This document shows, piece by piece, positions 1 to 47,486 of a stretch of 64,000 nucleotides of DNA. The notes under the pieces are model-generated. The model had not been told where the DNA came from, did no database searches, and saw only the letters and a list, made by a program, of their open reading frames with translations. Position 1 is the stretch's first letter. Every line of letters begins with the position of its first letter. Origin of the DNA: a virus; IMG/VR virus record IMGVR_UViG_3300025117_000049, positions 1 to 64,000 of that record, one strand, 5' to 3'. Both the position numbers and the translations under genes were made by a program.

Positions 1-1817
1 AACGAGAAGGCCCCAGCGGTATTCCCTTGGGCAATCTCGTTGTAGACCTCCCGGTCATCTAAGGGTATCTGGTCGAATTCGATGGTCTGGCCATGGAGTT
101 CTTTGACCAGTCGGGCTGCCTCGTTCAGAAATGACAGGTTGGATATTCCGAGCACATCCAGCTTCATCAGCCCCATGTACTCGGCGTCGTCCTTGTCCCA
201 GTTGGCTGAGATCACTCCGTTGTAGACCCGAAGGCTGCAATGATCACCCAGCCGGAGGTCCTTGGCGTTGATGCAGATTCCGCCCGCATGCTTGCCATAG
301 CCTTTTGTTTGTCCCTCCAGGTTGATGGCATGCCTGACCACATCCGGATATTTCCTTTGCAGATGTGCCAGTGGTGGGCTGTCCTTCAGGCTGTCCTCAA
401 TGGTATGACCGGCCCGATCATGTCCGTCAGGCACATCATTGATTCCCTCAGCCGCCGGGTTGACTTCCTTGAGTGGTACGTCGAACACCCGGGACACATC
501 CCGGATGGCTCCCTTGCCCTTCATGGTCATAAATGTGGATAGGTTGACTGTGCCGTGTTCCCCGTAGCAGTCCCTCAGGTGCTGGATGACCTCTTCCCTG
601 CGGGCTGACTCAAAATCCATGTCGATGTCCGGATAGTCCACCCGCTCAGGACTGATAAAGCGAGCGAAGATCAATCCATATTTCAGCGGGTCCACATCGG
701 TTATTCCCATAAGATAGCAGACCAATGAACCACCTGATGATCCTCTGCCAGGTCCCACTGCTATGCCCTGGGATTTGCACCATCCTATTAATTCATGTAC
801 TATCAGGAAGTATCGCTGGAAATTCATCTGGCAAATGAGTCCGAATTCTTCATTGACTCGGTCTTCGTATTCTTTGGCCTTTTCCGGCAATACATAGAAA
901 TCACCCAGCCGCCTTTCCCAGCCATCAGAAATGATTTCCCACATCAGGTCGGTCTCATCCCGGTCCTCATAGCCGTGGACTTTGGGCAGCTCCACCTGCA
1001 TGCGCTCCACGGTGTAGCCGTTACATAGCCCGGCCACCTCCATGGTCTGTGCCATAGCCTTCCGCCAGATTGGTTCAGCCAATACCGCTTGGACCTGGAA
1101 TGCCTGGGCCATCTCGTCGGCCGATCTCAAATGGAGATTAGGCCAGTCTCTCATTGACCAGCGGTCCTTATCATTCCATTTGGCGTTGCGCTTCATGGCC
1201 AGCAGCACATCTTGGGTCTCGCCCATGCCCTTGCGGGAATAGTGGCAGTCGTTTGTAGCTACCAAGGGAATGTTGTATTTTTGAGACAGCTCCAGACAGC
1301 GAAGGTTGTGTTTCTTTTGGAGCGGATGGGCATGGGGCATGATCTCAAGGAAGGTCGGGGCCATGTTCCTGAGTAGGCTAAGCAGCTTCTCCCCACCCTC
1401 CATATTGATGAACGAACCGATGCAGGCAGTGAGAAATACCAGGCCCTCGGTATGCCTGAGCAGCAGGTCTGGGTCTATCCTGGGTCGGCGGTGGAACCCT
1501 TCAAGGTTGGCCATGGAGATCATGTGCATCAGGTTAGTCAGACCTTCTCGGGATTGTACCAGGACAATCAAGTGGTGGCGCTCATCATTCTTGACCTTCA
1601 TGTCACCGCACATGTACAGCTCACAGCCCAGGATCGGGGTGATGCCGTGTTTCTTGCAGGCCTTCTGGTGCTTGAGAATTCCGTCGACGTTTCCGTGGTC
1701 GGTTATGGCACAGGCGGGTTGGCCGATGCGGACCGCCTCCTTGGCATAGTCCTCAGAGGTGCCGACGCCGTCGAGTTGACTGCTTGATGTATGGAGATGG
1801 AGGTGACAGAACGACAA
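1..1817 (-). CDS. dnaE: DNA polymerase III alpha subunit (runs off the window's left edge)
   Basis: Not in the ORF track. Read manually from a TTG at 1817: SFCHLHLHTSSSQLDG (PHP motif), later GPGRGSSGGSLVCYLMGITDVDP...FISPERVDYPDIDMDF (DnaE catalytic motifs). Confidence 0.95.
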   Translation of the reverse strand, partial: MSFCHLHLHTSSSQLDGVGTSEDYAKEAVRIGQPACAITDHGNVDGILKHQKACKKHGITPILGCELYMCGDMKVKNDERHHLIVLVQSREGLTNLMHMISMANLEGFHRRPRIDPDLLLRHTEGLVFLTACIGSFINMEGGEKLLSLLRNMAPTFLEIMPHAHPLQKKHNLRCLELSQKYNIPLVATNDCHYSRKGMGETQDVLLAMKRNAKWNDKDRWSMRDWPNLHLRSADEMAQAFQVQAVLAEPIWRKAMAQTMEVAGLCNGYTVERMQVELPKVHGYEDRDETDLMWEIISDGWERRLGDFYVLPEKAKEYEDRVNEEFGLICQMNFQRYFLIVHELIGWCKSQGIAVGPGRGSSGGSLVCYLMGITDVDPLKYGLIFARFISPERVDYPDIDMDFESARREEVIQHLRDCYGEHGTVNLSTFMTMKGKGAIRDVSRVFDVPLKEVNPAAEGINDVPDGHDRAGHTIEDSLKDSPPLAHLQRKYPDVVRHAINLEGQTKGYGKHAGGICINAKDLRLGDHCSLRVYNGVISANWDKDDAEYMGLMKLDVLGISNLSFLNEAARLVKELHGQTIEFDQIPLDDREVYNEIAQGNTAGAFS

Positions 1818-1818
1818 T

Positions 1819-2868
1819 TTATTTTACCGTTGATATGGTGCTGGTCACATGACGGAACCCCGGGGCGGTGAAGGCCAGCAGGTTGCCTGCCATCCGGAAC
1901 CTGCGGGTGGTCCCCATGATGTCCAGCAGGTACTTGGGGCTGATACTGATGGCCGCCCCATCGGGCCAGCCCCGCTCCACCGCCGGCACACGGTCGGTGA
2001 CGCTCCCGGAGCTGCGCTCACCCATGACCACGATATCCTGGTCATCCTTCCTTATGGTGACGTACTCCATGCCCCCATCCAGGGCCGAGGCCATGACTGC
2101 CGCCCGCTCCAGGGCAGGCTTCAATGCCTCAGGCAGTTCCCATTCATCCCCGGATTCCTCAGGGAACAGGTTTATCACCCCGTCCACCGGGAAGCTGCCC
2201 CCCAGGAGCCTGCTGGAGAACACCGCCCCGTTGCTGTCCATGAAGTGCACCCATGACGGGGTGGCCGCCCAGGACTCCAGGCCGTCCATGGAGGCGATTT
2301 GGGCCGCTGCCTTGGCTGGGATCACGAACTGGGCAAAATCTCCTTCAGCCATGGGGCATTCCAGTTCAGCCCAGGAGCACCTGAAGTTGTCCGTGGACAG
2401 CATGCGGTCGACCATGATGCATACGCCGGCCCAGACCCCATGGGCCGGGTTCCTTGATGCCCCGGGGGCCGTAAGAGCCAGCGCCTTGGTGAAGTTGGGC
2501 GGCAATGGCTGCCATTCCAGGCCTTCCAGATCCAGTGCTCGGATCAACCCCACGGTGTTGGCCTCTACCAGGGCCATGGACAGGGTGGTCCTACCGTCCG
2601 ATAACTCCAGCTTGTTGTTGGGGGTGACTTTGGTTTCCACATCTAGGCCGGCCATCCGTTCCAGGACCCGGATCATGTCCTGTGCCCTGATAGCGGCGTT
2701 GATGCCATCTGGAATGGGAGCAGGGTGGGTCACGCTCACATGGTCGTTGTACGTCTGGGCCAGCCCTGGGGACAGCACCACAGTGTCCGCCCCCTGGACT
2801 ATAGCCCCGCCCCGGTCCAGCCCGGGCATGACTGCCTTTAATGAAGCCAATAGCTCAAGCCTGTTCAT
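1819..2868 (-). CDS. dnaN: DNA polymerase III beta-clamp-like protein
   Basis: 349 aa with STDNFR and FSSRLLGGSFP resembling beta-clamp motifs; directly upstream of dnaE. Confidence 0.8.
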   Translation of the reverse strand: MNRLELLASLKAVMPGLDRGGAIVQGADTVVLSPGLAQTYNDHVSVTHPAPIPDGINAAIRAQDMIRVLERMAGLDVETKVTPNNKLELSDGRTTLSMALVEANTVGLIRALDLEGLEWQPLPPNFTKALALTAPGASRNPAHGVWAGVCIMVDRMLSTDNFRCSWAELECPMAEGDFAQFVIPAKAAAQIASMDGLESWAATPSWVHFMDSNGAVFSSRLLGGSFPVDGVINLFPEESGDEWELPEALKPALERAAVMASALDGGMEYVTIRKDDQDIVVMGERSSGSVTDRVPAVERGWPDGAAISISPKYLLDIMGTTRRFRMAGNLLAFTAPGFRHVTSTISTVK

Positions 2869-2869
2869 A

Positions 2870-3652
2870 TTATCTCCTTATCCAAGATCTGACCTCTCGA
2901 ACAGATAATGGATTCAATTTATCCTTAAAGAATTTCAATTTTGGATTGTCCAAGACCCCGCCATCATTGATTAGCTTGCCCTGGTTTATTATAGCTGGAT
3001 CAGTATAGAACAGCAGGCGCAGGTGTTCATTGATGTAATCAGGTTCAGATTCTGCCAGGCATATCCGGTAGTTGGTTCTGCACCAATTGTCATCCCAGGC
3101 ATTCAACCCAAGTAGACCCCCATCTTTGCCTAACAAAATGCGCCTGCAGTGGCCTGACAACGCATAGGCCACTATAATTTCTGGCTCCTGAAGGTCCCTA
3201 TCCCCAATCCAATTTCTGACCAGGGCCTTTATATCTTCCTCATGTTCAGGCCCGGGCTCAATATACTGAAGTGGGCCAATCCTGTTTGGAAGTTTACGGC
3301 TGTTCTTCCTGAAGACCACCCACTTATTGCCTGCCATATTTAGGAAGGCCCTGGGGTCATAGGTGTACTCCAGATCAAGAAATTTAGGGCGATACAAATT
3401 TTCTGAATAGCCAGTGGAATAATCCTGAAAGTCTGCCCAATACTTTTCAAACATGATTGGGCAGGTGACCATGCCCCAGTATATGTGGATTGGAGGAAAC
3501 ATGACTATTTTTGCACCAGGGTCCCATATGTATATCCAATTTCCGTCCTGGCGTTCTTCTAGCCCTGCTCGCTGGAAATATTCCACAGAGCACCAGAAGT
3601 TTGGGATGACCTTGCCTCTTTGAAGCAATTGTAGGTATCTACTCTTTTTCAT
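2870..3652 (-). CDS. DUF2156/MprF-C-like (GNAT-fold) transferase
   Basis: EYTYDPRAFLNMAGNKWVVFRKN and LINDGGVLDNPKLKFFKDKLNP resemble the DUF2156 motifs YxY...LxGxKxxxKRN and IN..DLG..GLR..K..Y.P. Confidence 0.6.
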   Translation of the reverse strand: MKKSRYLQLLQRGKVIPNFWCSVEYFQRAGLEERQDGNWIYIWDPGAKIVMFPPIHIYWGMVTCPIMFEKYWADFQDYSTGYSENLYRPKFLDLEYTYDPRAFLNMAGNKWVVFRKNSRKLPNRIGPLQYIEPGPEHEEDIKALVRNWIGDRDLQEPEIIVAYALSGHCRRILLGKDGGLLGLNAWDDNWCRTNYRICLAESEPDYINEHLRLLFYTDPAIINQGKLINDGGVLDNPKLKFFKDKLNPLSVREVRSWIRR

Positions 3653-3797
3653 TTTCAGGCTTGAACCCCAACCCTTGTGGTTTTTGATCCACAGGCTGTT
3701 TGGGAGACTGTTTGCCCGCTTTAGAGGGCTTGCCTGCGAGAAGGCGGTCTATTAGGGCACGACTGACTCCCCCGGTCTTCCGACTTTTCCCCCCCAC
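3639..3797 (-). CDS. small basic protein (52 aa)
   Basis: GAGGAGG RBS then GTG; MGGKSRKTGGVSRALIDRLLAGK...QGLGFKPENEKE; fills the gap between neighbours. Confidence 0.6.
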   Translation of the reverse strand: MGGKSRKTGGVSRALIDRLLAGKPSKAGKQSPKQPVDQKPQGLGFKPENEKE

Positions 3798-4491
3798 TTT
3801 TCACCTCCTCAATTATTCCGATTTCGTCGTATAAACATAATGCAATGATTCCTTCCATGTTGCCAGCCTTCAAAGTTAGGAACCCAGGCCGATCAGGCAC
3901 ACCAAATTCAATCAGGTCCTGGAAAGAATATAAGGCCATGAAATCATTGGTTCTGATGCCCACTGGACCAAATGGTTTGGATATATGATCCTGCTTGACA
4001 AGCCCCAAGCCAGACTGGTTCCTGGTAAGGGTTATGGTGGTGCCAGAGAAAATGTCCCGCTGGATGATTTCAAGGCTGCCGTTATTGGACTTGAATTCAA
4101 GGTGTGACAACCCCTCTTCCAATAGTGCCAGTGAGCTTTTGTGGACTGTAAAAGTAGAGTGGGTGGGCCCAACCAACCCGGCCCAGATTTTTTCAACATC
4201 TTGAAAAGTCCGCTCCGGAGTCTTGCAACATTTGGAACGGGTGAATTCATTGCCAGATTTAGTGAATATTACATATCCATCTTTTTCATGGAGTTTGCCA
4301 GGTTCATAATCATTGGCCTTAAAGCTCAGCGGGTGCTGAAAAGGGTTTTGATGCTTAAGCAGGGAAAACCGGAGCATCACTGTGTTTTCACCATTGAGGA
4401 TAAACACAGTTCGATCCTGGCAATAGATGGTGTTTTTGAGCCGCCCACTTTGGTCCAGGGCTACAGCATGAGAAAAAATTCGCTCAGTCAT
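3721..4491 (-). CDS. hypothetical protein, possibly PCNA/gp45-like clamp fold
   Basis: 256 aa, coupled to the radical SAM gene; beta-rich pattern only weakly suggestive of the fold. Confidence 0.55.
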   Translation of the reverse strand: MTERIFSHAVALDQSGRLKNTIYCQDRTVFILNGENTVMLRFSLLKHQNPFQHPLSFKANDYEPGKLHEKDGYVIFTKSGNEFTRSKCCKTPERTFQDVEKIWAGLVGPTHSTFTVHKSSLALLEEGLSHLEFKSNNGSLEIIQRDIFSGTTITLTRNQSGLGLVKQDHISKPFGPVGIRTNDFMALYSFQDLIEFGVPDRPGFLTLKAGNMEGIIALCLYDEIGIIEEVKSGGEKSEDRGSQSCPNRPPSRRQAL

Positions 4492-5891
4492 TAAATAACT
4501 CCTTTCAATATTTCTTCCCGGAAGTCTGGGAGGTTTTTGTCATATTTCCATCTGCGGCCGTGTTGGTCTATTCCTGCCGGTTCTATATGCGGAGCCCAGC
4601 TTGGGTGATAGGCATTGTTGCCCATGAGGTTCCAAAGCTCCTGGACCTCTATTTCCAGCTTGTTGCTCAGGAACCCACCACTATTGATCACATATGAGTG
4701 GTAGTCTTTCCATGATGTTGGAAGCAGGCCCCGGTCCATTATGAATCTAACCATGGGGACTATGCTGCCCATGTTCCACCGGCCCTTGAACCAATCCCCG
4801 ACATTACAACAAATCAGATCATCATTGGTGGGGACGTTACCCATGTCAAAAGTAGAACATTTCAGGCCCTCTGCCCGGAACAAATCCATGAACTTGCCAA
4901 GCAGGAGTGACCCGAGCCATTGACAGTCGCTCATCAAAGTGAACATGCGGGTGAAGTCATATCCCTGGCGGATAAAGGCCTGTCTGATGGTAGGGTTTTT
5001 GGCACTGTAGCTATATGTGTCAAAGGTGACATGGTTTATTCCAGCATCTTTTATGGCTTGGATATATTCTTCTGTTTTGGCCTGGTCATCATTTATGAAT
5101 ACCATGAAGGGTTCTATCCTGGCCACAACTCGGACTCCAGCCGAGGTCAGCTGTTTTGCTGCCCAGATGCGCCGGCTAAAAGGCGGTGCCCCAGGCTCCA
5201 GGTTTTTGTTGGTTTCATCATCTGAGGTGATCATGGTAATATGAACAGCTGCTTTGGCAAGGTTGTCTGAAAGCGGCCTGATATAATCTTCTCTGCCAAT
5301 CAGGTCTGATTTGGTGTTGATCATCACCGGATAGGCATTATCCCGAAGGTATTTCAACATGGATAGGCTGATGCCCTTTTTGGCCTCAATGGGCAGGAAA
5401 TCTTCAAACCTGATCCCGAAGCGCATTGGGATTTCCAAGCTGATGGCCTTGATTTTTTCATCTGCATTTTCTGACACTTGTTGGTCACGGTGCTTGAAGA
5501 GCTTGTCCAACTCTGCTTTGTAAAAATCTGGGTTGCAGTGTCTTAATCCGATGGACCGTGGGTTGTCAAAAAAACTGGTATAGAGTGAGGAGCGGAATGC
5601 ATCTGCGTAGCAGTAACGACAACCATAGCCACATAGGAGGCCGTCCCATACATCCAGGTTAAGCGGCATTGGGCATGCCTGGGCACGTAGGCTCACTTCA
5701 AGAAAACTGGAAACCTCTTCCGTATTGAGCAGGCGCTCCTGTTTCTCCCACTCTTGAGTCATAAGATTGAATTGATGGTAATTTTTTTTGCGCCCCTTTT
5801 CTTTTATTGACCCCTTGGAGTGGTCTGAAAGCAATTGGAGTTGCCTGGGGACCAGTTTTGAGACTACTGTTCTTAATTCCCAATAATTCAT
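4491..5891 (-). CDS. radical SAM protein, spore-photoproduct-lyase-like family
   Basis: CGYGCRYC (CxxxCxxC), INTKSD, LEPGAPP...GVRVVARIEP. Confidence 0.85.
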   Translation of the reverse strand: MNYWELRTVVSKLVPRQLQLLSDHSKGSIKEKGRKKNYHQFNLMTQEWEKQERLLNTEEVSSFLEVSLRAQACPMPLNLDVWDGLLCGYGCRYCYADAFRSSLYTSFFDNPRSIGLRHCNPDFYKAELDKLFKHRDQQVSENADEKIKAISLEIPMRFGIRFEDFLPIEAKKGISLSMLKYLRDNAYPVMINTKSDLIGREDYIRPLSDNLAKAAVHITMITSDDETNKNLEPGAPPFSRRIWAAKQLTSAGVRVVARIEPFMVFINDDQAKTEEYIQAIKDAGINHVTFDTYSYSAKNPTIRQAFIRQGYDFTRMFTLMSDCQWLGSLLLGKFMDLFRAEGLKCSTFDMGNVPTNDDLICCNVGDWFKGRWNMGSIVPMVRFIMDRGLLPTSWKDYHSYVINSGGFLSNKLEIEVQELWNLMGNNAYHPSWAPHIEPAGIDQHGRRWKYDKNLPDFREEILKGVI

Positions 5892-5970
5892 TATTGTATC
5901 TCACTCCCGATGTTCCAGAATAAAATCGGCTTGGCTATTTTATTATAGCCATCTAATAGGTATCTGATGA

Positions 5971-7164
5971 CTACCATAATAAACCGACTTTTTTGATTTT
6001 TGAGTTATCTTTTTTCCCATATATATGATACCCGTTTTTATCCTTATCTAAAATCATTACTCCAGGGGAATCTACCAAGCTATAGTATTGCCTGCCTTTA
6101 TTCCAAATTTTTTTCATTCTGTCATATGCTTTTGGTTCTTTAAAATCTATTGCTTCCATATCATTCCAAGATATAGAACCTTTTTGATCTATTATTTTAC
6201 ATGCCTTCATAAATGTAAATGAATATGGGGTAAATAAATCATCAACTCCACAACAGCTTTCACATGAAGAGTCAAATGGGAAATTGATAAAGTCCGGGGT
6301 TGATACTCTGATCCCACTACTTTTCATGATTGTAAAAAATCTTTTCCCAACATTGATCCAATTATCATCTAAGTTATTTTTCAACAGTTTAATATAATCA
6401 AAACCCCTCTTCTCAAATTCTTCCTTAGCCAACCTTGGCATTGTTGAACGGTAATTATAGAAACTGACGTGTTTGGCTTGGCTTTTAATACAATTATCTC
6501 GATATCCTTCAAATATTTCATCAGTTGAATTAATTCCGATTAGAATAGGTTCCCATCTAACTGCAGTCCATATACCAGCCTCATTCAATTCCTTGACCAA
6601 TAACCATCTCATGGATGGCGGCGGCGCCCCCGGCTCTAATTTATAATTCAGTGTGTCAGATCCACCCATAATGGAAACTATCACCGCAGCTTTCATTTGT
6701 TTGATTAAATCAAGATATCTCTTAAGGCCAACATAATGTGATTTGGTTTGGAAAATAACAGGCACTTTATATTCAATAAATAAGCGAAGGACTTTCTCAA
6801 CCACCTTGTGATCATGATCCTCTATGCAAAATGTCTCAGCCTTGCTGCCCATATTGAATGGCAAACCATGCCTGAGGCATTTTATTGACCAGTCTTGATA
6901 GTCTTTGTCTGACCCAAATGCTTTATCAAATACTTTTTTATAATCATCGGGATCACAGGACCTTACTAGTTCACGATGCCATCCAGTGTAATATTTGTTG
7001 AACAGTTCATGATCCATTTCCCGACAAAAACACCACCAGCATCCCATGGAACACCCAGAGAAAATATCCCCACCGAAGGCTTGTGGGCAAACCAAACTAT
7101 CACCTCTCCAACCAATGATTGAGCCGAATTTTAGTTTAGATATGTCTTTTTTCATTTTCTCCAT
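5971..7164 (-). CDS. radical SAM protein, spore-photoproduct-lyase-like family (second paralogue)
   Basis: CSMGCWWC, FQTKS, LEPGAPP...AVRWEP, late CC pair. Confidence 0.85.
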   Translation of the reverse strand: MEKMKKDISKLKFGSIIGWRGDSLVCPQAFGGDIFSGCSMGCWWCFCREMDHELFNKYYTGWHRELVRSCDPDDYKKVFDKAFGSDKDYQDWSIKCLRHGLPFNMGSKAETFCIEDHDHKVVEKVLRLFIEYKVPVIFQTKSHYVGLKRYLDLIKQMKAAVIVSIMGGSDTLNYKLEPGAPPPSMRWLLVKELNEAGIWTAVRWEPILIGINSTDEIFEGYRDNCIKSQAKHVSFYNYRSTMPRLAKEEFEKRGFDYIKLLKNNLDDNWINVGKRFFTIMKSSGIRVSTPDFINFPFDSSCESCCGVDDLFTPYSFTFMKACKIIDQKGSISWNDMEAIDFKEPKAYDRMKKIWNKGRQYYSLVDSPGVMILDKDKNGYHIYGKKDNSKIKKVGLLW

Positions 7165-7967
7165 CCTAACGGCCTTTCGTAATGGTATGGTGGAGCTGTG
7201 AGTGTTGGATATGGAATCCCAAGGGTTTCTTTAATCCATCTTAAATAGGGCACTTCTTGTGGATTGATTCCGATAAAATTAGCCGCCTGGCAATCCATTC
7301 CCCACATATCCTCTGATGTGATAATGATATTTGATTGTACTGGTAACCCGTAGTGTTCAGAATATTCTGAGCCAACTATTCCATCCATTATACAAAAACT
7401 TACCTTGTCCTTCATAATAAAATATAGGTCATGTAGCCTCTTATGTAAAATCTCAATACTGCCTCTTGGATGCATATTTCCTTTTTGAGCAATTATCCCC
7501 ATCATGTTTTTAATGGCTCCAGTAACCAATGCCATTTTATGAACCTTTAACTTTGGGAGATTTATGATGGCATCACAACTCAAGACAACATCAGATATTT
7601 TTACTCCAAATAGGCTTTTGTATTGATGATTTGCTCGGACTAAAGTGAATTCATGAAACCGCTTGCCTTCCTGTAAACCTATTAATTCCACTCCATATTT
7701 TTTGGGCAGGACGTCATATTTGGATAGGTATATAGTTGCTTGCCATTGATCTTTAAACCCACAATCTCCAATAATAATGGAGGCTCCTTGATCTAATAGA
7801 ACTTGGATAACTGCTTCAATTAGGGAAATGTCTGTTGATGAGGCACGCTCCCACTTAGTCTTGGGCATTACCAAGTTTGGCTTTAAAAAAACTTTCCGTC
7901 CATGAAATCCTCCCGGAAGCTGCTCTTCAATGAGCTTCCGGGAGATTTGGTTGGTGTGGATTATCAT
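7152..7967 (-). CDS. DUF362 domain protein
   Basis: KVFLKPNL, INLPKLKVH, TGAIKNMMG, IMDG and GINPQEVPYL motifs. Confidence 0.85.
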   Translation of the reverse strand: MIIHTNQISRKLIEEQLPGGFHGRKVFLKPNLVMPKTKWERASSTDISLIEAVIQVLLDQGASIIIGDCGFKDQWQATIYLSKYDVLPKKYGVELIGLQEGKRFHEFTLVRANHQYKSLFGVKISDVVLSCDAIINLPKLKVHKMALVTGAIKNMMGIIAQKGNMHPRGSIEILHKRLHDLYFIMKDKVSFCIMDGIVGSEYSEHYGLPVQSNIIITSEDMWGMDCQAANFIGINPQEVPYLRWIKETLGIPYPTLTAPPYHYERPLGWRK

Positions 7968-8738
7968 TTATTTCAGTTGGAATTGGCCATCAGCCTGGAA
8001 TGACAGCAAATCCAGGCCGTTGAAGAATTTCAACCCCATGGACACCAGTGTCGCAGATTCTTTGGCATTATCCTTGCCGCCCTTCTGAACATAAAGGGTG
8101 TTGGCTGCCATAGCCAGGGACTCCTTGGTAAAGGCGCCACCTGATTTCAGGCATTCACAAACAGAATCAATCCGGCTGTATTTCTCTCCAGCCGGGGCTT
8201 TGGGCTCTTTGGGCTTGGCCGATGCAGATTTCTTTTTGGGCCCTGCTTCGGCCATGATCGTCTGGCACTCCTCGGCCCGCTTGCAGGGCTTGGCGCAGGC
8301 CTCATCGGTGGCATCATAGCCCTTGCCGAACTCCGGGCATTCCTTGGGTGGGACAATGGTTTCTTCGCCGATGACTTCGGTTTCGGCCTTCTCTGCCGGC
8401 CCCGCCTCAGCCCCGTCTTGGACCACCGCTTCCTTGGGATCGGGCTGCCCGGTAGCTTCTGCTGCTGCGGCCTCGGGGGATTGTGGCTCAACTGCCGACA
8501 GGGCCTCGTAGGTGGCCAGGGTCTCGGGCTTCAGGTTGCCGGCCCGCTCATCCACCCAAATCTGTTCTTCGGGGTTCTCCGGGTTGGGGCCGATGCAGCC
8601 GCCGATGGTGTTGACGATGAAATCAATGAGCACCTGCCGGCCAGCTACGTGGTTCTGTTTGATGTCCAGGACGGTGGCGATGTCTTTGACTGCCTTCTGG
8701 AGGTCTGGGTGTTTCACTTCTTCAATGGTCATGGTCAT
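7968..8738 (-). CDS. hypothetical protein with small Cys cluster and possible C-terminal winged helix
   Basis: Acidic linker, then CPEFGKGYDATDEACAKPCKRAEEC; AGGAG RBS and a promoter-like site upstream. Confidence 0.7.
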   Translation of the reverse strand: MTMTIEEVKHPDLQKAVKDIATVLDIKQNHVAGRQVLIDFIVNTIGGCIGPNPENPEEQIWVDERAGNLKPETLATYEALSAVEPQSPEAAAAEATGQPDPKEAVVQDGAEAGPAEKAETEVIGEETIVPPKECPEFGKGYDATDEACAKPCKRAEECQTIMAEAGPKKKSASAKPKEPKAPAGEKYSRIDSVCECLKSGGAFTKESLAMAANTLYVQKGGKDNAKESATLVSMGLKFFNGLDLLSFQADGQFQLK

Positions 8739-8785: not shown

Positions 8786-8861
8786 TGATGTATTATTATA
8801 GCCGATTGTGATGAATTCATTAGGGATTTTTTGCAATTATTTTGGTTCATGGTCGTTTTTT
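8786..8861 (-). promoter_or_regulatory. promoter-containing repeat, copy 1
   Basis: Minus strand AAAATAATTGCA...GAATTC...GGCTATAATA; near copy at 9185-9260. Confidence 0.6.
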
Positions 8862-9185
8862 CAAAAAATTATCATGCCTTTCCTTGCATTTCATACAGCG
8901 GCCTATTAAGTCTTGCAGGGATTTGTCGCTGTCCACTTGCCCAAGCTCTACGTGGTAAAAATCAGCTGGGAATGGGCTTTGGTGATTGTACCCCCTCTCG
9001 GTCATTTCCTGGGCCAATTGGTCATGGCGGGCAGCCAGATTGTGGACTTCAACCAACCCACGGTTAAGATAGCCCTGGATTGACTTGCCCTTGGCAATGG
9101 TGCCAAGAAACATATGACTTTCTACATGCTCGCCGAGCAGGTGCTGTCGGCAAAGGATTTTTGGGTTGACCATCCAGAGTCTCAT
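8847..9185 (-). CDS. denV: pyrimidine dimer DNA glycosylase (T4 endonuclease V family)
   Basis: MRLWMVNPKILCRQHLLGEHVESH and EMTERGYNH motifs. Confidence 0.8.
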   Translation of the reverse strand: MRLWMVNPKILCRQHLLGEHVESHMFLGTIAKGKSIQGYLNRGLVEVHNLAARHDQLAQEMTERGYNHQSPFPADFYHVELGQVDSDKSLQDLIGRCMKCKERHDNFLKKRP

Positions 9186-12031: not shown

Positions 12032-13552
12032 TTATAGCCCTTCCCTGATGAACTCAGAATCCACCACGGCCTGTCCCAACTCCAGGCATTGCAGGACCAT
12101 GGCCTTAGAGCTGCGCCGGTCATCCCGTTGGACGCTGGTGCCCACCCTCATCCTGAGCATACGTTCCTCATTTTCAGACTTGTCCAAAATTAGCATGCCG
12201 TCCACATCTCCCAGGATTTGCACCGACTCCCCAATGTCACTACCCTTCTTGGACTTGCGCTCGATGGCCGTCTTGCTCCCGGCCTGGAAGGGCATGACCA
12301 GCAGGGAATGATACTGCTGGGCCAGGGCTACGTTGTCCTGCCGGTTCTTGACTATGGCCATGCGGTCCTCGCCCCGGAAGCTCTGGAGGTCGGGACTGTC
12401 CACGACAATCACATGGGGCACGAATCCTTCCAGGTGTGCCCAGACCTCCAGGGTGGACCTGACCTCGGCCACCCCGGCGGACCGCATGGGCCAGTATTGG
12501 AACTTGAAGCGGGCACCCCGGAGCTGTCTGTCGGTTGCCTGTGCCCGCTTCCACGCTGCCCTCCATGCCGGTGGGCTTTTCTCAATCGGCACAGCCCATG
12601 TCTCCATCTGCCAATGATCTTGTTTCCTACAAGCAGCACAGGCCCGGTATCCCTGCGGCGCACGGGAGAAATGAGGCTGCTGGCCCTGGCCATCCAGTAG
12701 GGCCACCCGGTTGGTACGGTCGACCCTGGAGCAGTTGTTTTCCTGGTTCAGCCGACAGTCCCATACTGGCCACCATATCGGGCCAGACGGGGGTTTGAGT
12801 GGCACCCCAGCAATACCTTGGACGAACCGGCGAGTTTCCTTCCTGCGATTCATTTCAAAGGAGAATCGAGCCACGTTGAGGCCGGCATAGAGGGCCATGA
12901 GTTGAATGTACTGCACCATGTAGGACTTGCCGCCCTTGTAGTTGCCCACCAGACCCCAGGCATCTTCCCGGACGAACGGCCCAAGAAGGCGGCCCAGGGC
13001 ACCCGGCAGGGTGAACAGCTCGTCGTCGCCTTCGAATGCATCCCTTATGGCCCCCATGTCCTTGAGCGGCTCGCACCCAAGGGAAATTCCTTGACCAGGC
13101 CCGGTCCAGCGGGCCACAGCCTCCTCAGCGCCCAGCAGGTTGCCACTTGCAAGATGTCCATCTAAATCTTCTTTCAATAAGACTAAAGACCGTTCCTTGA
13201 AGAATATTATCGCTCGATCAAGAAGATATTCAGGATTTCCAACCTGTTCGTATTGTTCGTATTGTTCGCTTATAGATTCCAGAGTTTTTGCAATAAGCTC
13301 AGATTGATCAGAATCAAGTCCGTTCCGGCGATGGGCATCATAAATATCCCGTATATGTTGCTTTGGCGCCTGATCATAGATAGCTAAATAGTCTAAGCAC
13401 CATTTAGCACATGTTGCCATAAATGGAGTTGTAAAATATCTTGGTTTATAAATAACAGAAAGGCGGCGAAGAATCTTGTCATCTGTTATCATTCCAATAA
13501 GAACCGCTCTTTCTATGGAGAGATCAATGGTTTCTCTTTGCCAATTAACCAT
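12032..13552 (-). CDS. replicative DnaB-like helicase with Cys-rich insert
   Basis: Walker A GNYKGGKS, FSFEM, Walker B VIVVDSPD. Confidence 0.8.
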   Translation of the reverse strand: MVNWQRETIDLSIERAVLIGMITDDKILRRLSVIYKPRYFTTPFMATCAKWCLDYLAIYDQAPKQHIRDIYDAHRRNGLDSDQSELIAKTLESISEQYEQYEQVGNPEYLLDRAIIFFKERSLVLLKEDLDGHLASGNLLGAEEAVARWTGPGQGISLGCEPLKDMGAIRDAFEGDDELFTLPGALGRLLGPFVREDAWGLVGNYKGGKSYMVQYIQLMALYAGLNVARFSFEMNRRKETRRFVQGIAGVPLKPPSGPIWWPVWDCRLNQENNCSRVDRTNRVALLDGQGQQPHFSRAPQGYRACAACRKQDHWQMETWAVPIEKSPPAWRAAWKRAQATDRQLRGARFKFQYWPMRSAGVAEVRSTLEVWAHLEGFVPHVIVVDSPDLQSFRGEDRMAIVKNRQDNVALAQQYHSLLVMPFQAGSKTAIERKSKKGSDIGESVQILGDVDGMLILDKSENEERMLRMRVGTSVQRDDRRSSKAMVLQCLELGQAVVDSEFIREGL

Positions 13553-14345
13553 TGTTCACTCTTTCTTTTTTAATTTGTGCCCAATGCTTTTTTAAGGCCA
13601 CAGATAATTTTTGTCTTGTTTCTGGGGAATAAACTTTATTCTGCTGTGCTTGTCTAATTCTTTCTTTTGCCTCTTCGGTATGTCCACCTTTTTCTTTCCA
13701 TGCTTTTCTTGCTAAATTTAGTGTATTTTGTGAAGGCATTTGGCCTTTCTTTGCTTTTTTCATTTTTTCTATTGATTCTGGTTTATGTTTTCTCCCTTTA
13801 AAAGCCTGATTTCCTTTGTTTGCTCTGCCTATTTTTTCTTTTGTTTCTGGATGGCATTTCTTACCATAATTCCAACTATTTTCCCCTTTATGTTTTTCAC
13901 TCATTTTTTGTTTAGATTCTTCTGTATGAAACATACCCTTATGAATATTACTTAAATGCCTTTTACTTTCTTCTGACATTATTAATCCGCTACCACCTTC
14001 TCCACCATCAGTAAGGTTTGATAAACACCCAGTCTGTTTATTTATTCTTCCATACTGCTCAATAGCCGCTATTTCTAAGGCAAAAGAATCATCTTCAGAG
14101 AGACTAGATAAAATGATATCTTCCTCGAAATCTAATCCGTTTTTCCAAAGCTTATGAATAATTTTAACCTTAATTGATTTTCTTCCAGGCTTAATTAGTA
14201 ATTTTTCTGCTTCTTTACGATGATCAAATCTGCGACCATTTCCTGTCTTCCCCTTCCCTACATAAAATGGCTGCCATTTAGATTCGTCCATTGGATCGAC
14301 CTTATCTGGCCTACGCAGATAATAGAGATAGAAATTGTTAGCCAT
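13545..14345 (-). mobile_element. free-standing GIY-YIG-like homing endonuclease with NUMOD3-like repeats
   Basis: FYLYYLRRPDK...PFYVGKG, NLTDGGEG, HTEESKQKMS repeats; AT-rich. Confidence 0.85.
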
Positions 14346-14354
14346 TAACAATTC

Positions 14355-14492: not shown

Positions 14493-14746
14493 TGGATATT
14501 TTTCACAAACCTACAAGATTTAAGGCTAAAATATCCAATTTCATGAAATGGGCCGATTATCCAGGGTCTTTTACTATCTTGCTTAATTTCAGATAATTTA
14601 AAAGACCTTCCAGAGTAAAATTTATATTGTAGGTAAATATGATCTTCTTCAAAATCTATGCAGTATTGACCCTTGCCAATTCTATTTATAGTCCAAATTC
14701 GCCAACTAAATTGCTCGGCAACTTTTCTTAATTCGGCTTCAGTCAC
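14489..14746 (-). CDS. hypothetical protein (AT-rich)
   Basis: GGAGG RBS, GTG overlapping the deaminase stop. Confidence 0.55.
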   Translation of the reverse strand: MTEAELRKVAEQFSWRIWTINRIGKGQYCIDFEEDHIYLQYKFYSGRSFKLSEIKQDSKRPWIIGPFHEIGYFSLKSCRFVKNIQ

Positions 14747-15378
14747 GCTGTCCTCCTCAACCTGCGCCTGCTGGTGAATGGTTTCAATATTTCCTGAGCC
14801 AATTCTGTTGCCTGGCAACTCACCTCCAACTGCTCCATGGGCAGCAGTTCCCGGAGCCAGTCACTATCCGGATCATCATAATCAAGCTCAAAAAATACCC
14901 GGACAACCCCAGCCATCACCAGGATTTTTGTACAGGTTGCGCACGGGCGGGTGGTGCAGTAGAGAACAGAACCGGAGGTGGCCACTCCCAATCGGGCGGC
15001 CTGGGCCACGGCATTGGCCTCAGCATGGGATGACACGCAGGCCCGATCCTTCCTGGCATCCGGAATATTGGAAGCCCGGCGACGGCAATAGAGGATTTGG
15101 CCTGTGCCATGGCAGGCTGGGCAGGTTATTATTCTTTCTTCTATAGTTGGTGTAGATATTCGAATAGCCGAACATTTTCTAGTACCATTACAAGCAAGGC
15201 ATATAGATGGTTCTTGATTGCTGCAATGCTCCTGCCCCGGCAGTGCCCCATTATACCCGGTTGCAATAATGCGGTTGTCCCGCACCAGGACCGCTCCTTG
15301 TGGCCTGGAGTTGCAGGTGGAGCGCACTGCAGCCAGCTTGGCCTGCAAAAGATGATATTCATTCCAACTGGGGCGCAT
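14743..15378 (-). CDS. dCMP deaminase with inserted DnaJ-type zinc finger
   Basis: RSTC, ATGYNG, HAEANA, PCATC. Confidence 0.9.
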   Translation of the reverse strand: MRPSWNEYHLLQAKLAAVRSTCNSRPQGAVLVRDNRIIATGYNGALPGQEHCSNQEPSICLACNGTRKCSAIRISTPTIEERIITCPACHGTGQILYCRRRASNIPDARKDRACVSSHAEANAVAQAARLGVATSGSVLYCTTRPCATCTKILVMAGVVRVFFELDYDDPDSDWLRELLPMEQLEVSCQATELAQEILKPFTSRRRLRRTA

Positions 15379-15619: not shown

Positions 15620-16396
15620 CTACATCCCCAGCCAGGCTTTAGCGGCCGACCACTCAATGTCATTTATGTGAACATCTTTCGAGAATGCCACGGTCGGCCC
15701 TGGGAAGACCTCCCTGCCGGCGGCCTCTGATATCAGTTGGCAATGAGCTTCCTTGAGCATCTGGAAGCCTGCCATCTCAAGCGGCATGGCGCCAAACCAA
15801 TTCCAGCAGCGGAAGTGAATGTAGTAGTGAAGGTAGTTTTTATCGATTGTCCCTTTACTTTCACAGTATGGGCAATATTGAGCATTCTTTTTAGCTGAAA
15901 ATCCAATACAGATCGGGCATATTTCAAATTTCTTAATTATCCTGGTGTCAATGGACCGCAGGCATGGAATGGATTTGCCATTGACACACTTTAACATATC
16001 GTCGAACACCTGACCCACGGACATTATGGCCTTCTGGGTGTAGAAGCCGCCCTCAGCATACCGCCTGACTGTGTAGTCGATGCCGGACATCAACCATTGG
16101 GCATAGGTGTAGTGTTCGTTGGGTGAAGGTGGCTCGTTGGTGTAGAGATATGTGAGCAGATACTGTTCGGCATCGGCCTCGGAGCAGGTGGAGATGCAGC
16201 CGGGTTTGGACAGCGGCACCAGCGGGCGTTCCTCCGGGTGGGTGATGGTCACGGACATCCAATCCAGGGCCTTGCGGAGCATACCGGCCCGGGTGGAATC
16301 GTCTTTGCGGTATTCCCGACCCCTGGTCATGATCTCCCGCATGACGCCCAGCCATGCCTGCTCCAGGTTACGGACGGTGAGGTTAGCAGTAATCAT
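15620..16396 (-). CDS. thymidylate-synthase-fold enzyme (archaeal/deltaproteobacterial type), variant active site
   Basis: YTYAQWL, PCLRSIDTRI, FRCWNWFGAMPLEMAG, SKDVHI. Confidence 0.8.
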   Translation of the reverse strand: MITANLTVRNLEQAWLGVMREIMTRGREYRKDDSTRAGMLRKALDWMSVTITHPEERPLVPLSKPGCISTCSEADAEQYLLTYLYTNEPPSPNEHYTYAQWLMSGIDYTVRRYAEGGFYTQKAIMSVGQVFDDMLKCVNGKSIPCLRSIDTRIIKKFEICPICIGFSAKKNAQYCPYCESKGTIDKNYLHYYIHFRCWNWFGAMPLEMAGFQMLKEAHCQLISEAAGREVFPGPTVAFSKDVHINDIEWSAAKAWLGM

Positions 16397-16615: not shown

Positions 16616-17464
16616 TTATTCATATGCTATCCTTATTTTAGGTTTATAAAACCGACCTTTCGAATCTCTTTGTTTATTTTTTACTAATATTTTAGCATTA
16701 TCACTTCTAACCTTTCTTTCTTCATCACTATATTCCCTGCCATATTGATGGTTTTTCTCTCCTATTTGCGCGTCACTTATCTTCTTGCGAGTTTCTATAG
16801 AGCGTTTCTTTCCTTTATTTGACTTGCTGTTTTTATCTCTTGTTTCTTGCGACGGAGCAGGTCTATTTAGACCGACTATTCTCATTTTTTCAATAGATTC
16901 TGGTTTATGTTTTTTGCCTTTTCTATGTGATGGTCTCCCTTTTAACGCATTACTGATATTTATTAATGTTTCCGGAGAATGCGGTATGCCTTTGTTCCAA
17001 GGACAGTTTCCTAATAAAGAATTGCTTATTCGTTCTCTAACTTCAGGTGTCCTTACTTTACCTTTATTTCCCTTACTAATATTCTTTTTATGTTCGTCTG
17101 TGCAAATATAACCAGATATTCCTTCGCCGCCATTAGTGAGGTTAGTTAAACAGCCAGTATTATTATCTCTCCTTCCATAAGCATTTATAGCGTCCTGTTC
17201 TATTTCAAATGCTTCTTGTTCGGTAAGGTCTTTAAAGGCTATATCTTCTTCAAAATCTAACCCTAACCTCCAAAGTTTATGAATGATCCCAATTCTTAAT
17301 GGTTTTCTGCCAGGCTTTCCTGACAATAAAGTAGCTAATCGCCGATGCTCCTTAAATCTTTCATTATGGCCCTTTCCAATATAGAATGGCTGACTTTTCT
17401 CTGGCTCGAATTGATCGGGCTTATCCGGCCTTCTCAAAAAATATACATAAAAATTATTAGCCAT
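16616..17464 (-). mobile_element. free-standing GIY-YIG-like homing endonuclease with NUMOD3-like repeats
   Basis: FYVYFLRRPDK...PFYIGKG, NLTNGGEG, PWNKG; paralogue of 13545-14345. Confidence 0.85.
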
Positions 17465-21865: not shown

Positions 21866-21941
21866 TGGTGCGGGTGGTGGGACTCGAACCCACGGCTTCG
21901 TGCTCCCAGGGCACGCACTCTACCAACTGAGCTACACCCAC
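21866..21941 (-). tRNA. tRNA-Pro(UGG), atypical
   Basis: 76-nt cloverleaf: GTGGGTG/CACCCGC acceptor, GCTC-AGTTGGTA-GAGT D arm, CGTGC-CCTGGGA-GCACG anticodon arm, TTCGAGT T loop, encoded CCA. Confidence 0.9.
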
Positions 21942-28824: not shown

Positions 28825-29352
28825 TTACGACTTATTGATTTCATCCAACAGCAGATTCCCGACCCGGTCAAGCTCTTGCTTGGTATGGGCCACCCCGGAG
28901 TTCAGATCCAGGTACCACTGCAATACTTCAGCCCGGGTAGGCAGGTTAGCTACATGGAAATTGAAGTGTAGGCCATAAACGAATCTCTTGTCTTCGTATT
29001 CGGAAAAAAGATGACCATATGCAGGAATTTCATTGTGAAGGAAGGCCAGTACAGCGGTGATACGCTGCAGGCCGTCAACCAATTCCATGGGACCGCGATA
29101 ATCGTTCATCCAGCCGGGGCAATTGAAGAATATGTCCAGGCCAGACTCACCGCCGCGGATAATGAATTCCACATAGGCAATCTGCTGTTCCTTGGTCCAT
29201 ACATGTCCACGCTGAAAATCAGGGTTAAGATCGAATTTAGTGCCGCTGCTTTTCTCAGAATAACTTTTAAGCTGTTCCTCCAGGTAATCCCAGGAGACGT
29301 GAACATTGTAATGGGTCTTGCTCATTTGCTTGATGTCTTTGAATCTTGCCAT
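28825..29352 (-). CDS. DUF262 (ParB-like) domain protein
   Basis: PDFQRGHVWT and VDGLQR motifs; AAGGAG RBS before the ATG at 29352. Confidence 0.85.
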   Translation of the reverse strand: MARFKDIKQMSKTHYNVHVSWDYLEEQLKSYSEKSSGTKFDLNPDFQRGHVWTKEQQIAYVEFIIRGGESGLDIFFNCPGWMNDYRGPMELVDGLQRITAVLAFLHNEIPAYGHLFSEYEDKRFVYGLHFNFHVANLPTRAEVLQWYLDLNSGVAHTKQELDRVGNLLLDEINKS

Positions 29353-29385
29353 AGCCAGCTCCTTTATGGTTTGGATTTTTGGCTT

Positions 29386-29459
29386 CCTGCAACCATGGCT
29401 GCCTATCAGAGCAGCCAGAGGGTTTCGGCCGTAACCCATCCGGCTCTCATTCAGGCAGG
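29386..29459 (-). ncRNA. hammerhead ribozyme (type I, variant core)
   Basis: CCUGC-CUGAAUGA-G(A)GCCG/CGGCC-GAAA-CC..GG-UU-GCAGG. Confidence 0.65.
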
Positions 29460-40688: not shown

Positions 40689-41618
40689 ATGGCTAAGAGA
40701 ATTGCCTATGATACTCCTGCTCCAAAGCCTCAGTGTCAAGATTCCTTGAGAACAGATTTCTATCTCTATTTCTTGAGGCGGCCCGATAAAATCGATCCTC
40801 TTGATCTGTCCAAGGGTCAGCCATTCTATGTCGGCAAGGGCTGTAATGGGAGAGTTGGAGGGCATAGAGTCGAAGCGAGAAGCTTATTGCATAAACCTGG
40901 TAGAAAATCACATAAAATTAATATCATTCATAAACTATGGAAACAAGGTTTAGATTTTCAGGAAGATATTATTCTTAACTGCTTATCAGATGATGATGCT
41001 ATTGCTTTAGAAATTGCTGCTATCGAACAATATGGTCGTAAAGACAATGGCACAGGTATATTGGCCAACCTGACTGATGGTGGAGAGGGAGTATCTGGGC
41101 GGTTAGGTTTAATTATGACTTCTGAAGCAAAAGAGAGAATGAGAGTAGCAAAATTAGGCAAAAAATTACCTCCATTTTCAGAAGGACACAAAGAGAAAAT
41201 AAGACAAGCCAATTTAAGGGAAAATCTTTCTCCGGAAACTCTTGAAAAGAGAAGCAAGGCCCATTTAGGAAAAAAACTTACGCCAGAACATGTAGAAAAA
41301 ATGAGACAAACTCTAAAGGGGCGTAAACGTTCTCCAGAAGCAGTTGAAAAAACAAGGCAAGCAAATTTAGGAAGACCTTGCTCTCCTGAGAAAAAAGAGA
41401 AGCTAAGACAAGCCAACCTCGGAAAAAAACATAGTCCAGAAAGAATCGAAAGAAATAGACAAATCCAGCTTATAGTGCAAAATACCCCAGAGGCAATAGA
41501 AAGAAATAGACAAGCTCATTTAGGAAAGAGACACACTCCTGAAACAAAAGAGAAGTTAAGACAGATTCAATTGTTACGCCGCCAGCGAGAAAGGGAGGCC
41601 AGGAATGGCAGTCAATAA
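40689..41618 (+). mobile_element. free-standing GIY-YIG-like homing endonuclease with NUMOD3-like repeats
   Basis: FYLYFLRRPDK...PFYVGKG, NLTDGGEG, many S/TPE..EK.RQA.LG repeats. Confidence 0.85.
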
Positions 41619-47180: not shown

Positions 47181-47484
47181 CGTGATGCATGGCGGAATCC
47201 TTTACCGGAAGGAATTTTCCTACGGTGAGGATCTGATGGTGTATACCAGGACCTCGGCCATGACCCCTGAGACCGAGGAGGATGGCTGGAGCACCAAAGG
47301 CTGGTATCGGCTCTCCGGTCAGGACGGCAACCCGGTCATGATTAGCGATCCTGGGTTCCTGGTGCAGCTTGCTAATGCGGCTGCAAGGAAAGGCTGGCAG
47401 GTTGAATGGAACCCGGCTTTCAAGCCAGTTAAGGATTTGCCCCAGGGATTTTGTTTTCACAAGAACGCCATGGAGAATTTTTAA
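47131..47484 (+). CDS. hypothetical protein
   Basis: ORF preceding the protease. Confidence 0.55.
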   Translation: MINVTSIPVELLHLSIDVMHGGILYRKEFSYGEDLMVYTRTSAMTPETEEDGWSTKGWYRLSGQDGNPVMISDPGFLVQLANAAARKGWQVEWNPAFKPVKDLPQGFCFHKNAMENF

Positions 47485-47486
47485 TC

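Follow-up and report, generated by a model that had tools for sequence, protein, structure and literature searches.

We analysed a 64,000-nucleotide stretch of viral DNA (the window), taken from the start of the IMG/VR virus record IMGVR_UViG_3300025117_000049, which is 96.8 kb long and rated complete by CheckV, and in particular a gene cassette at positions 2870 to 7967 that we think is probably a DNA hypermodification module. In the window a phage replication module occupies the minus strand and a head module the plus strand; groundwater metagenomes, and also a few runs with a soil label, contain the same DNA. A preliminary description had reported a closely packed minus-strand run encoding a DUF362 protein, two radical S-adenosylmethionine (SAM) enzymes, an unknown protein, a small open reading frame (ORF) and a DUF2156-like protein, lying directly upstream of the sliding clamp gene and dnaE. 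All of these ORFs lie where they had been placed, and both replisome genes adjoin the run, giving the following layout.

7968..8738, minus strand: p256b (256 aa), flanking; no family, acidic proline-rich middle, conserved C-terminal ~70 aa.
7152..7967, minus strand: DUF362 protein (271 aa); PF04015, E 8e-36.
5971..7164, minus strand: radical SAM enzyme R2a (397 aa, CSMGCWWC); partial matches to PF04055 and PA0069/Rv2578c.
5891..5959, minus strand: 3' relic of a pyridoxal phosphate (PLP) enzyme gene of the M6 gp52 family; from translation of the spacer that separates the R2a stop from the R1 start.
4491..5891, minus strand: radical SAM enzyme R1 (466 aa, CGYGCRYC); PF04055 and COG1533-type models.
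3721..4491, minus strand: p256 (256 aa), two-domain protein with a predicted PCNA fold; no Pfam or PHROG family.
3639..3797, minus strand: s52 (52 aa), small basic protein; recognised by its Shine-Dalgarno sequence and conservation, no Pfam family.
2870..3652, minus strand: p260 (260 aa), tandem-GNAT protein with a predicted DUF2156/MprF-C fold.
1819..2868, minus strand: beta-type sliding clamp (349 aa), flanking; phrog_947, E 8e-22, and PF02767, E 1e-4.
3..1817, minus strand: N-terminal part of DnaE (Pol III alpha), flanking; PHP, DNA_pol3_alpha and finger domains.

The genes of the run abut or overlap. The first 13 nt of R2a are also the last 13 nt of the DUF362 gene, and the start of p256 overlaps the stop codon of R1 (ATGA).

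A GNAT fold had been expected for the product of 2870-3652, and the AlphaFold model of p260 (predicted local distance difference test [pLDDT] 92) indeed has the tandem-GNAT fold of DUF2156. The top Foldseek matches of this model were 4v36 (L-PGS), 9j8s, 2hqy, 4v35 and 5vrv (E 2e-10 to 5e-8), and further matches were obtained to MprF, A-PGS, FemX and the aminoacyl-tRNA-dependent peptide synthases Sbb17 and Sba18. At the level of sequence, 9 of 30 members of the p260 family match PF09924 weakly (best 1.2e-4), and a PDB profile search with the family returned 2hqy alone (E 0.39). The family has the invariant motifs FRKNSRK..R and NDGGVLDNPxLKxFKDKLNP. The predicted fold suggests that p260 is probably an aminoacyl-tRNA-dependent transferase. 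An acetyltransferase of the type of gp48 of phage PaMx11 was ruled out (hhalign probability 0.2%).

R1 and R2a both carry the motif CxxxCxxC and match PF04055 weakly. They also match the COG1533-type NCBIfam models PA0069 and Rv2578c (1e-9 to 1e-15, partial matches far below the curated cut-offs) and, again partially, phrog_13321, the PHROG annotated as "DNA repair photolyase." R1 is the most conserved core gene; in a 41-sequence alignment with 52% mean identity, C73, C87, C91, C94, C119, C345, C361 and C362 are invariant, and in the Atlas R1 falls in virus-only clusters. In hhalign comparisons R2a aligned to R2b, the common R2 subtype of the relatives, with E 1.5e-32 and to R1 with E 1.3e-34, and overall R1, R2a and R2b are clear paralogs (E 1e-16 to 1e-34). 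The same method connects all three to gp53 of Pseudomonas phage M6, which isomerises N-alpha- to C-alpha-glycinylthymidine in DNA (PMC8989533). This glycinyl-thymine isomerase was matched by the mixed R2 profile A4 with 97.8% probability (E 8e-13), by R2b with E 2.6e-10, by R2a with 90.8% probability (E 1.2e-6) and by R1 with 87-89% probability (E 2e-6 to 4e-6). Searches of PDB sequences with R1, R2, DUF362 and the profiles A3 and A4 gave nothing significant, and the solved structure of spore photoproduct lyase (SPL) was not matched by the radical SAM profiles. The two enzymes, first described as SPL-like, are so at the level of COG1533 and of M6 gp53, and not at that of a sequence-profile match to solved SPL.

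In R1 of two relatives a mini-intein of ~140-150 aa (L073:7234-9102 and L017:6904-8700) sits exactly at the third cysteine of CxxxCxxC, with the junctions ..CLY / CFPAGTKIL...VVHN / CYAN.., and R1 is split into two ORFs near the intein site in L036, L066, L077, L038 and L054. A third radical SAM paralog (484-520 aa) lies between the GNAT and clamp genes in L012, L029, L072, L038 and L059 and is often adjoined in relatives by a 113-157 aa protein without known family.

The ORF at 3721-4491, described before as unknown, has no Pfam or PHROG family, but the predicted structure of its product, p256, identifies a PCNA fold. The AlphaFold model (pLDDT 85.5, with a disordered C-terminal tail) matched yeast and archaeal PCNA in Foldseek (E 3e-9), and VIA-align superimposed it on PCNA with a Z score of 15.7 over 205 aligned residues (root-mean-square deviation 4.2). 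The match covers the whole chain, residues 1-222 of the model aligning to PCNA 11-256, and subunits of the 9-1-1 clamp were matched with Z 14.9. Each chain has two topologically alike domains, as in PCNA-type clamps. The homologs of p256 (n = 32) are all unnamed. Across the family (alignment A2), Lys87, Cys89, His130, Glu132, Cys219 and Asp222 are invariant and the motifs LSHxE, QRDIxSG, GPxGIRTxDF and CLYDE recur; the invariant residues might form a metal or ligand site.

The micro-protein gene s52 is a real gene. A perfect Shine-Dalgarno sequence (GAGGAGG) lies 6 nt before its GTG start, and the gene is conserved in relatives, where it starts with ATG. Its product has an invariant N terminus (MGGKSRKxGGxSxxL), followed by a lysine-rich linker and, at the C terminus, by a short hydrophobic motif (GLGF here and LGL, LFD or LLD in relatives) that is similar to clamp-binding peptides. 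The family numbers 295 cluster representatives (E<=1e-3) among 1.84 billion proteins, and among the 150 matches listed nearly all are 40-85 aa long and carry the motif at residue 1 or close to it. A search for a Rosetta-stone fusion of s52 yielded one long match (257 aa), which is not a GNAT fusion. Prediction of complexes of s52 with the PCNA-like protein, the clamp and the GNAT gave 0.22 against a mark of 0.32, which is no verdict and is counted neither way.

The preliminary description had looked to co-occurrence of these gene families elsewhere, and a search with the p260 profile found 70 IMG/VR contigs that carry the same cassette. The gene order in these relatives is DnaB, (p256b), R2, a variable slot, R1, the PCNA-like gene, s52, GNAT, clamp and DnaE. 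Occurrence was counted over those related viral loci that extend 6 kb or more upstream of the GNAT gene, 50 in all. R1 is present in 49 of them, R2 in 48 and the PCNA-like gene in 46, and a clamp gene follows the GNAT gene in 44. Since the core genes recur in 46-49 of the 50 informative loci, the arrangement is not a chance juxtaposition. Cassette DNA had no blastn match among cultured phages, and tblastn of R1 and p260 against the same phages gave three weak radical SAM matches in faecal contigs and none for p260. A p260 profile search of 185k species genomes found two short contigs of metagenome-assembled genomes only, and a literature search found no published description of the cassette.

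The variable slot provides the strongest homology to enzymes of known function. A PLP enzyme of the PALP fold occupies it in 21 of the 50 loci, and the profile of this enzyme aligns to gp52 of phage M6 with 100% hhalign probability (E 6e-65, 35% identity over 266 columns); in tblastn the enzyme is ~36% identical (1e-40) to proteins of M6-like, Yua-like and Bordetella phages. In M6, gp52 has been shown experimentally to decarboxylate the product of gp53, an amino-acid:thymine conjugate (PMC8989533). In other relatives the slot is occupied by a flavoenzyme that matches PaMx11 gp47 over its full length (27% identity, E 5e-30) and lies beside an aldo-keto reductase (PF00248, 1e-41). PaMx11 gp47 is a flavin lyase that cleaves N-alpha-glycinylthymidine to 5-aminomethyldeoxyuridine (PMC8989533). 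In further loci the slot contains a methyltransferase-like protein or is empty.

In the window the slot enzyme is the DUF362 protein, which matches almost the entire PF04015 profile (positions 1-199 of 200; 124.3 bits against a cut-off of 24). The clan in which Pfam places DUF362 also includes the N-terminal domain of LarA, from the 2-hydroxy-acid racemases (PMC11770544), and in relatives DUF362 is always paired with the same R2 subtype. The G+C content at third codon positions (GC3) is 0.36 in the DUF362 gene and 0.34 in R2a, compared with ~0.52 in the core cassette and 0.6-0.78 in the replisome genes. The 79-nt spacer between R2a and R1 encodes, in frame 2, a 22-codon PLP-enzyme relic ending in LLDGYNKIAKPILFWNIGSEIQ and a double stop; it matches the C terminus of the PLP enzyme in the relative L009, which ends in LDNYNKLDKPILFWNIGGGGK, and the family consensus end PILFWNIG. 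The stop of the relic overlaps the ATG of R1, as the stop of an intact upstream gene does. No such relic was found in the five other DUF362-type loci. In the R1 tree the window is sister to the PLP-type cassette of L009 (support 100/99), and over the tree as a whole the slot type scatters at random (24 changes, as against 23.8 on average after shuffling). Taken together, the relic, the low GC3 and the R1 tree show that in this phage DUF362 and R2a displaced R2b and the PLP enzyme. The slot version of this window is thus a recent swap. DUF362, earlier named as a member of the module, is indeed present here, but it occurs in 5 of the 50 related loci only and is a swapped-in accessory, not a core component. 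Combinatorial swapping of enzymes has been described in published work for hypermodification clusters.

The preliminary description had also remarked on the lack of a visible 5-hydroxymethyluracil kinase or classic amino-acid:DNA transferase, and the wider survey bears this out. In 21 cassette genomes (the whole 96.8-kb genome and 20 relatives, 7 of the 21 being complete), neither the 5-hydroxymethyldeoxyuridine (5-hmdU) DNA kinase (PF18748, HMUDK_HMUD1) nor the amino-acid:DNA transferase (PF18724, ADDT / aGPT-Pplase) was found, the M6 positive controls scoring 1e-19 and 2e-48, respectively. Tet_JBP was likewise found in none of the 21, in a search without a positive control. Neither Thymidylat_synt (PF00303) nor ThyX was found in the genome of this phage, and of the 20 relatives a single one had a PF00303 match, while no complete relative did. 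Accessory families F1-F6 showed no likeness to PaMx11 gp46, gp48, gp49 or gp50. Adjoining the dCMP deaminase gene (14743-15378) is a gene for a divergent protein of the thymidylate synthase (TS) fold (15620-16396, minus strand), which resembles TS clusters in the Atlas (TM 0.80/0.94) and is missed by Pfam and PHROGs. Protein and Pfam searches did not find it in 19 of the 20 relatives, including all 6 complete ones, and it was therefore ruled out as an obligatory partner of the cassette.

Overall, we put at about 65% the probability that the cassette is a module for DNA hypermodification whose front end is new, radical-based and probably dependent on aminoacyl-tRNA. The preliminary description had left the choice between a base-hypermodification and a repair pathway. 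We favour hypermodification because enzymes of the cassette are homologous to M6 gp52, M6 gp53 and PaMx11 gp47, and do not favour the repair branch. The PCNA fold of p256 and the place of the cassette between DnaB and the clamp and DnaE are also counted in favour of hypermodification. Inteins favour conserved sites in DNA-metabolism proteins, and those in R1 of the relatives are counted toward the same reading. We infer that DNA is the substrate and tRNA the donor, and likewise the target base and the role of the PCNA-like protein as a tether.

In the mechanism that we propose, the cassette would act post-replicatively, within the replisome operon of the phage. The GNAT would take an amino acid, glycine being the obvious candidate, from a host aminoacyl-tRNA, for which Mom of phage Mu is a precedent (PMC13219725). 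Acting on a canonical base in DNA, the radical SAM enzymes would activate it and either make its bond to the amino acid or rearrange that bond, the methyl group of thymine being the most economical target, as in the chemistry of SPL and gp53. Such a front end would stand in for the usual series of deoxyuridine monophosphate (dUMP) hydroxymethylase, 5-hmdU kinase and amino-acid:DNA transferase. Newly made DNA would be where the PCNA-like protein, possibly with s52 as an adaptor, keeps the enzymes, and the slot enzyme would finally set the chemical group. We offer, more tentatively and with the odds somewhat against it, a fuller version in which this would be a route free of O2 and of 5-hydroxymethyl-pyrimidine, with a radical SAM enzyme acting directly on a canonical base of duplex DNA, an enzyme of the MprF/FemX type supplying the amino acid from charged host tRNA, a PCNA-like ring of its own with a 50-residue adaptor travelling behind the replisome, and swappable tailoring enzymes that yield many different final bases across a large clade of uncultured phages.

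Several points weigh against a hypermodification module. The case is made from gene content, folds, homologies, co-occurrence, the absence of the classical front end and the module swap, and the tblastn searches with R1 and p260 found no cultured phage with the cassette. The homology argument is strongest for the PLP and flavin adenine dinucleotide (FAD) enzymes, which the window itself lacks, and we know of no function for DUF362, the slot enzyme that it has instead. The match of p260 to PF09924 is below the cut-off (E 1e-3, 18.7 bits against 27.5), and its donor may be either tRNA or acyl-CoA. R2 is also present beside the gp47-type lyase and therefore need not be a gp53-like isomerase. Invariant Cys, His, Asp and Glu residues are unusual in a passive clamp, and the invariant N terminus of s52 is compatible with a peptide substrate too. 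Furthermore, as the Pfam TS model misses the TS-fold protein of the window, divergent TS-like enzymes may be present in relatives.

Each of the three rival explanations accounts for fewer of the facts than DNA hypermodification does. The first, which we regard as improbable, is that the cassette modifies a peptide, in the manner of peptides made by ribosomes and then post-translationally modified (RiPPs), or a protein. In this scheme s52 would be a substrate or scaffold to which the GNAT adds an amino acid at the N-terminal Gly or at a Lys, the other enzymes would tailor it, and the product would act during infection. That s52 is real and present in most cassettes, with its first 15 residues nearly invariant and the listed members of its family nearly all short, fits this scheme, as does the resemblance of the cassette's enzyme classes to RiPP tailoring sets; FemX and L/F-transferases aminoacylate peptides and proteins (PMC13219725). 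Against this, the PLP and FAD enzymes are homologous to enzymes that act on DNA-borne glycinyl-thymine, the radical SAM enzymes are of the COG1533/gp53 type and Pfam scans found no SPASM or RRE domain, and both the PCNA-fold protein and the fixed position between helicase and polymerase would be left unexplained.

The second rival, for which we see little chance, is modification of RNA, with the cassette making an xm5U-like nucleoside (of the cmnm5U/nm5U type) on host or phage tRNA or other RNA. Glycinyl-thymine chemistry does parallel the modification of tRNA U34 by MnmEG and MnmC, gp47 being homologous to MnmC1 (PMC8989533), and relatives of p260 bind tRNA. Yet the closest homologs of the cassette enzymes are phage enzymes that act on DNA, not MnmC, the cassette includes a PCNA-fold protein and sits in a replisome operon, and no tRNA gene accompanies it in 43 loci. 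Finally, it is highly improbable that the cassette serves DNA repair, with SPL-like radical SAM lyases reversing thymine photoproducts or crosslinks together with a DenV-type glycosylase on a dedicated clamp: the radical SAM enzymes are of the COG1533 "DNA repair photolyase" type, a Pyr_excise glycosylase is encoded at 8847-9185, a uracil-DNA glycosylase (UDG) domain is fused to DnaE and a PCNA fold suits repair equally, but the cassette-centred loci of the 70 relatives gave no DenV match, reversal of a lesion has no place for an aminoacyl-tRNA transferase fold or for a swapping set of PLP, flavin, reductase and DUF362 enzymes, the metagenomes that yielded the DNA are from groundwater, where there is presumably little UV, and profile searches did not reach solved SPL.

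The glycosylase gene just mentioned lies on the minus strand just upstream of the cassette and encodes a pyrimidine dimer glycosylase of the T4 endonuclease V type (PF03013, 3.5e-18). Between DnaB and the cassette, p256b has homologs at the same position in at least 16 loci, and its GC3 (0.69) is similar to that of the replisome genes. The C-terminal part of dnaE lies at 94935-96635 of the genome and carries the fused UDG-superfamily domain (PF03167, 3e-19); as dnaE is cut by both ends of the contig, the genome is probably circularly permuted. Its GC content is strongly mosaic. AT-rich homing endonuclease genes (phrog_314) were found at 13545-14351, 16616-17464 and 40689-41618, and an HNH endonuclease segment is inserted in a 1092-aa head-protease-like ORF (47451-50729). 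The portal protein (41605-43812, plus strand) has a C-terminal ADP-ribosyltransferase-like region (phrog_3895, phrog_802), and a 204-aa early-region protein (28825-29439, minus strand) has a GmrSD N-terminal (DUF262-type) domain (PF03235, 1.4e-9). The sole tRNA gene of the genome, for tRNA-Pro (UGG), is far from the cassette (21866-21941, minus strand).

To our knowledge, every characterised thymidine hypermodification pathway starts with 5-hmdU, a DNA kinase and an amino-acid:DNA transferase. A published metagenome survey was built around 5-phosphomethyldeoxyuridine (5-PmdU), the product of the kinase and the central intermediate (PMC8989533), and a survey centred on 5-PmdU has probably missed cassettes that have no kinase. 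The back-end enzymes described here are homologous to known ones, and the front end is a replacement made up of a second radical SAM enzyme, proteins with aminoacyl-tRNA-transferase and PCNA folds, and a conserved micro-protein. The family is large, with 70 IMG/VR contigs and 295 micro-protein clusters. If our reading is correct, the cassette would join Mom as a second case of DNA modification that depends on tRNA, would include the first clamp dedicated to a modification machine, would offer an anaerobic way of functionalising DNA bases, and would be relevant to phage defence, radical enzymology and new DNA chemistries.

We know of no radical SAM enzyme other than M6 gp53 that has been shown to install a DNA modification, and M6 is among the known systems closest to the cassette. 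The M6 cluster consists of gp51 (ADDT), gp52 (PLP decarboxylase), gp53 (radical SAM isomerase) and gp54 (5-hmdU DNA kinase) and makes 5-(2-aminoethyl)deoxyuridine (5-NedU) (PMC8989533); we confirmed the identities of these genes with Pfam. As in M6, the genes are clustered near nucleotide and replication genes, radical SAM enzymes of the gp53 family are present in the window and its relatives, and a PLP enzyme of the gp52 family adjoins them in 21 of 50 loci, surviving here as the relic. In contrast to M6, the cassette has no detected ADDT or 5-hmdU kinase and mostly no TS homologue, and it has two radical SAM paralogs where M6 has one. Its tandem-GNAT, PCNA-fold protein and micro-protein are not in the gp51-gp54 cluster as published (PMC8989533).

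The likeness to PaMx11 lies in the gp47 homolog in the slot of some relatives and in the same sculpting of an amino-acid:base conjugate. PaMx11 makes 5-acetylaminomethyldeoxyuridine (5-AcNmdU) by way of gp46 (ADDT), gp47 (flavin lyase), gp48 (acetyltransferase) and gp49 (kinase). The cassette differs in that the gp47 homolog is not in this window, p260 is unrelated to gp48, and relatives of gp46 and gp49 are not among the cassette families.

Mom of phage Mu is a GNAT enzyme that modifies adenine at N6 in double-stranded DNA with the help of Gly-tRNA (PMC13219725). It shares with p260 membership of the GNAT superfamily in a phage, relatives that use aminoacyl-tRNA, and DNA as the acceptor, proposed in the case of p260. 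Mom works alone and has one GNAT domain, with an insertion, whereas p260 has two in tandem, as in the MprF-C/DUF2156 type, and is accompanied by two radical SAM enzymes. To MprF-C, FemX and Sbb17, p260 is related by its predicted fold (Foldseek E 2e-10 to 1e-4, TM 0.6-0.68 by query), and with MprF-C-type transferases it shares a basic helix motif and a C-terminal motif of the FK..LNP type. Unlike MprF, it has no membrane domain, is shorter (260 aa), falls below the Pfam cut-off and stands in a viral replisome context.

The tie to SplB is indirect. R1 and R2 are, like SplB, radical SAM enzymes of the COG1533 type with CxxxCxxC, but they have no detectable profile match to solved SPL, and the connection runs through M6 gp53, which its authors matched to SPL (PMC8989533). 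The gene partners of the cassette point to biosynthesis rather than to repair of the SplB type.

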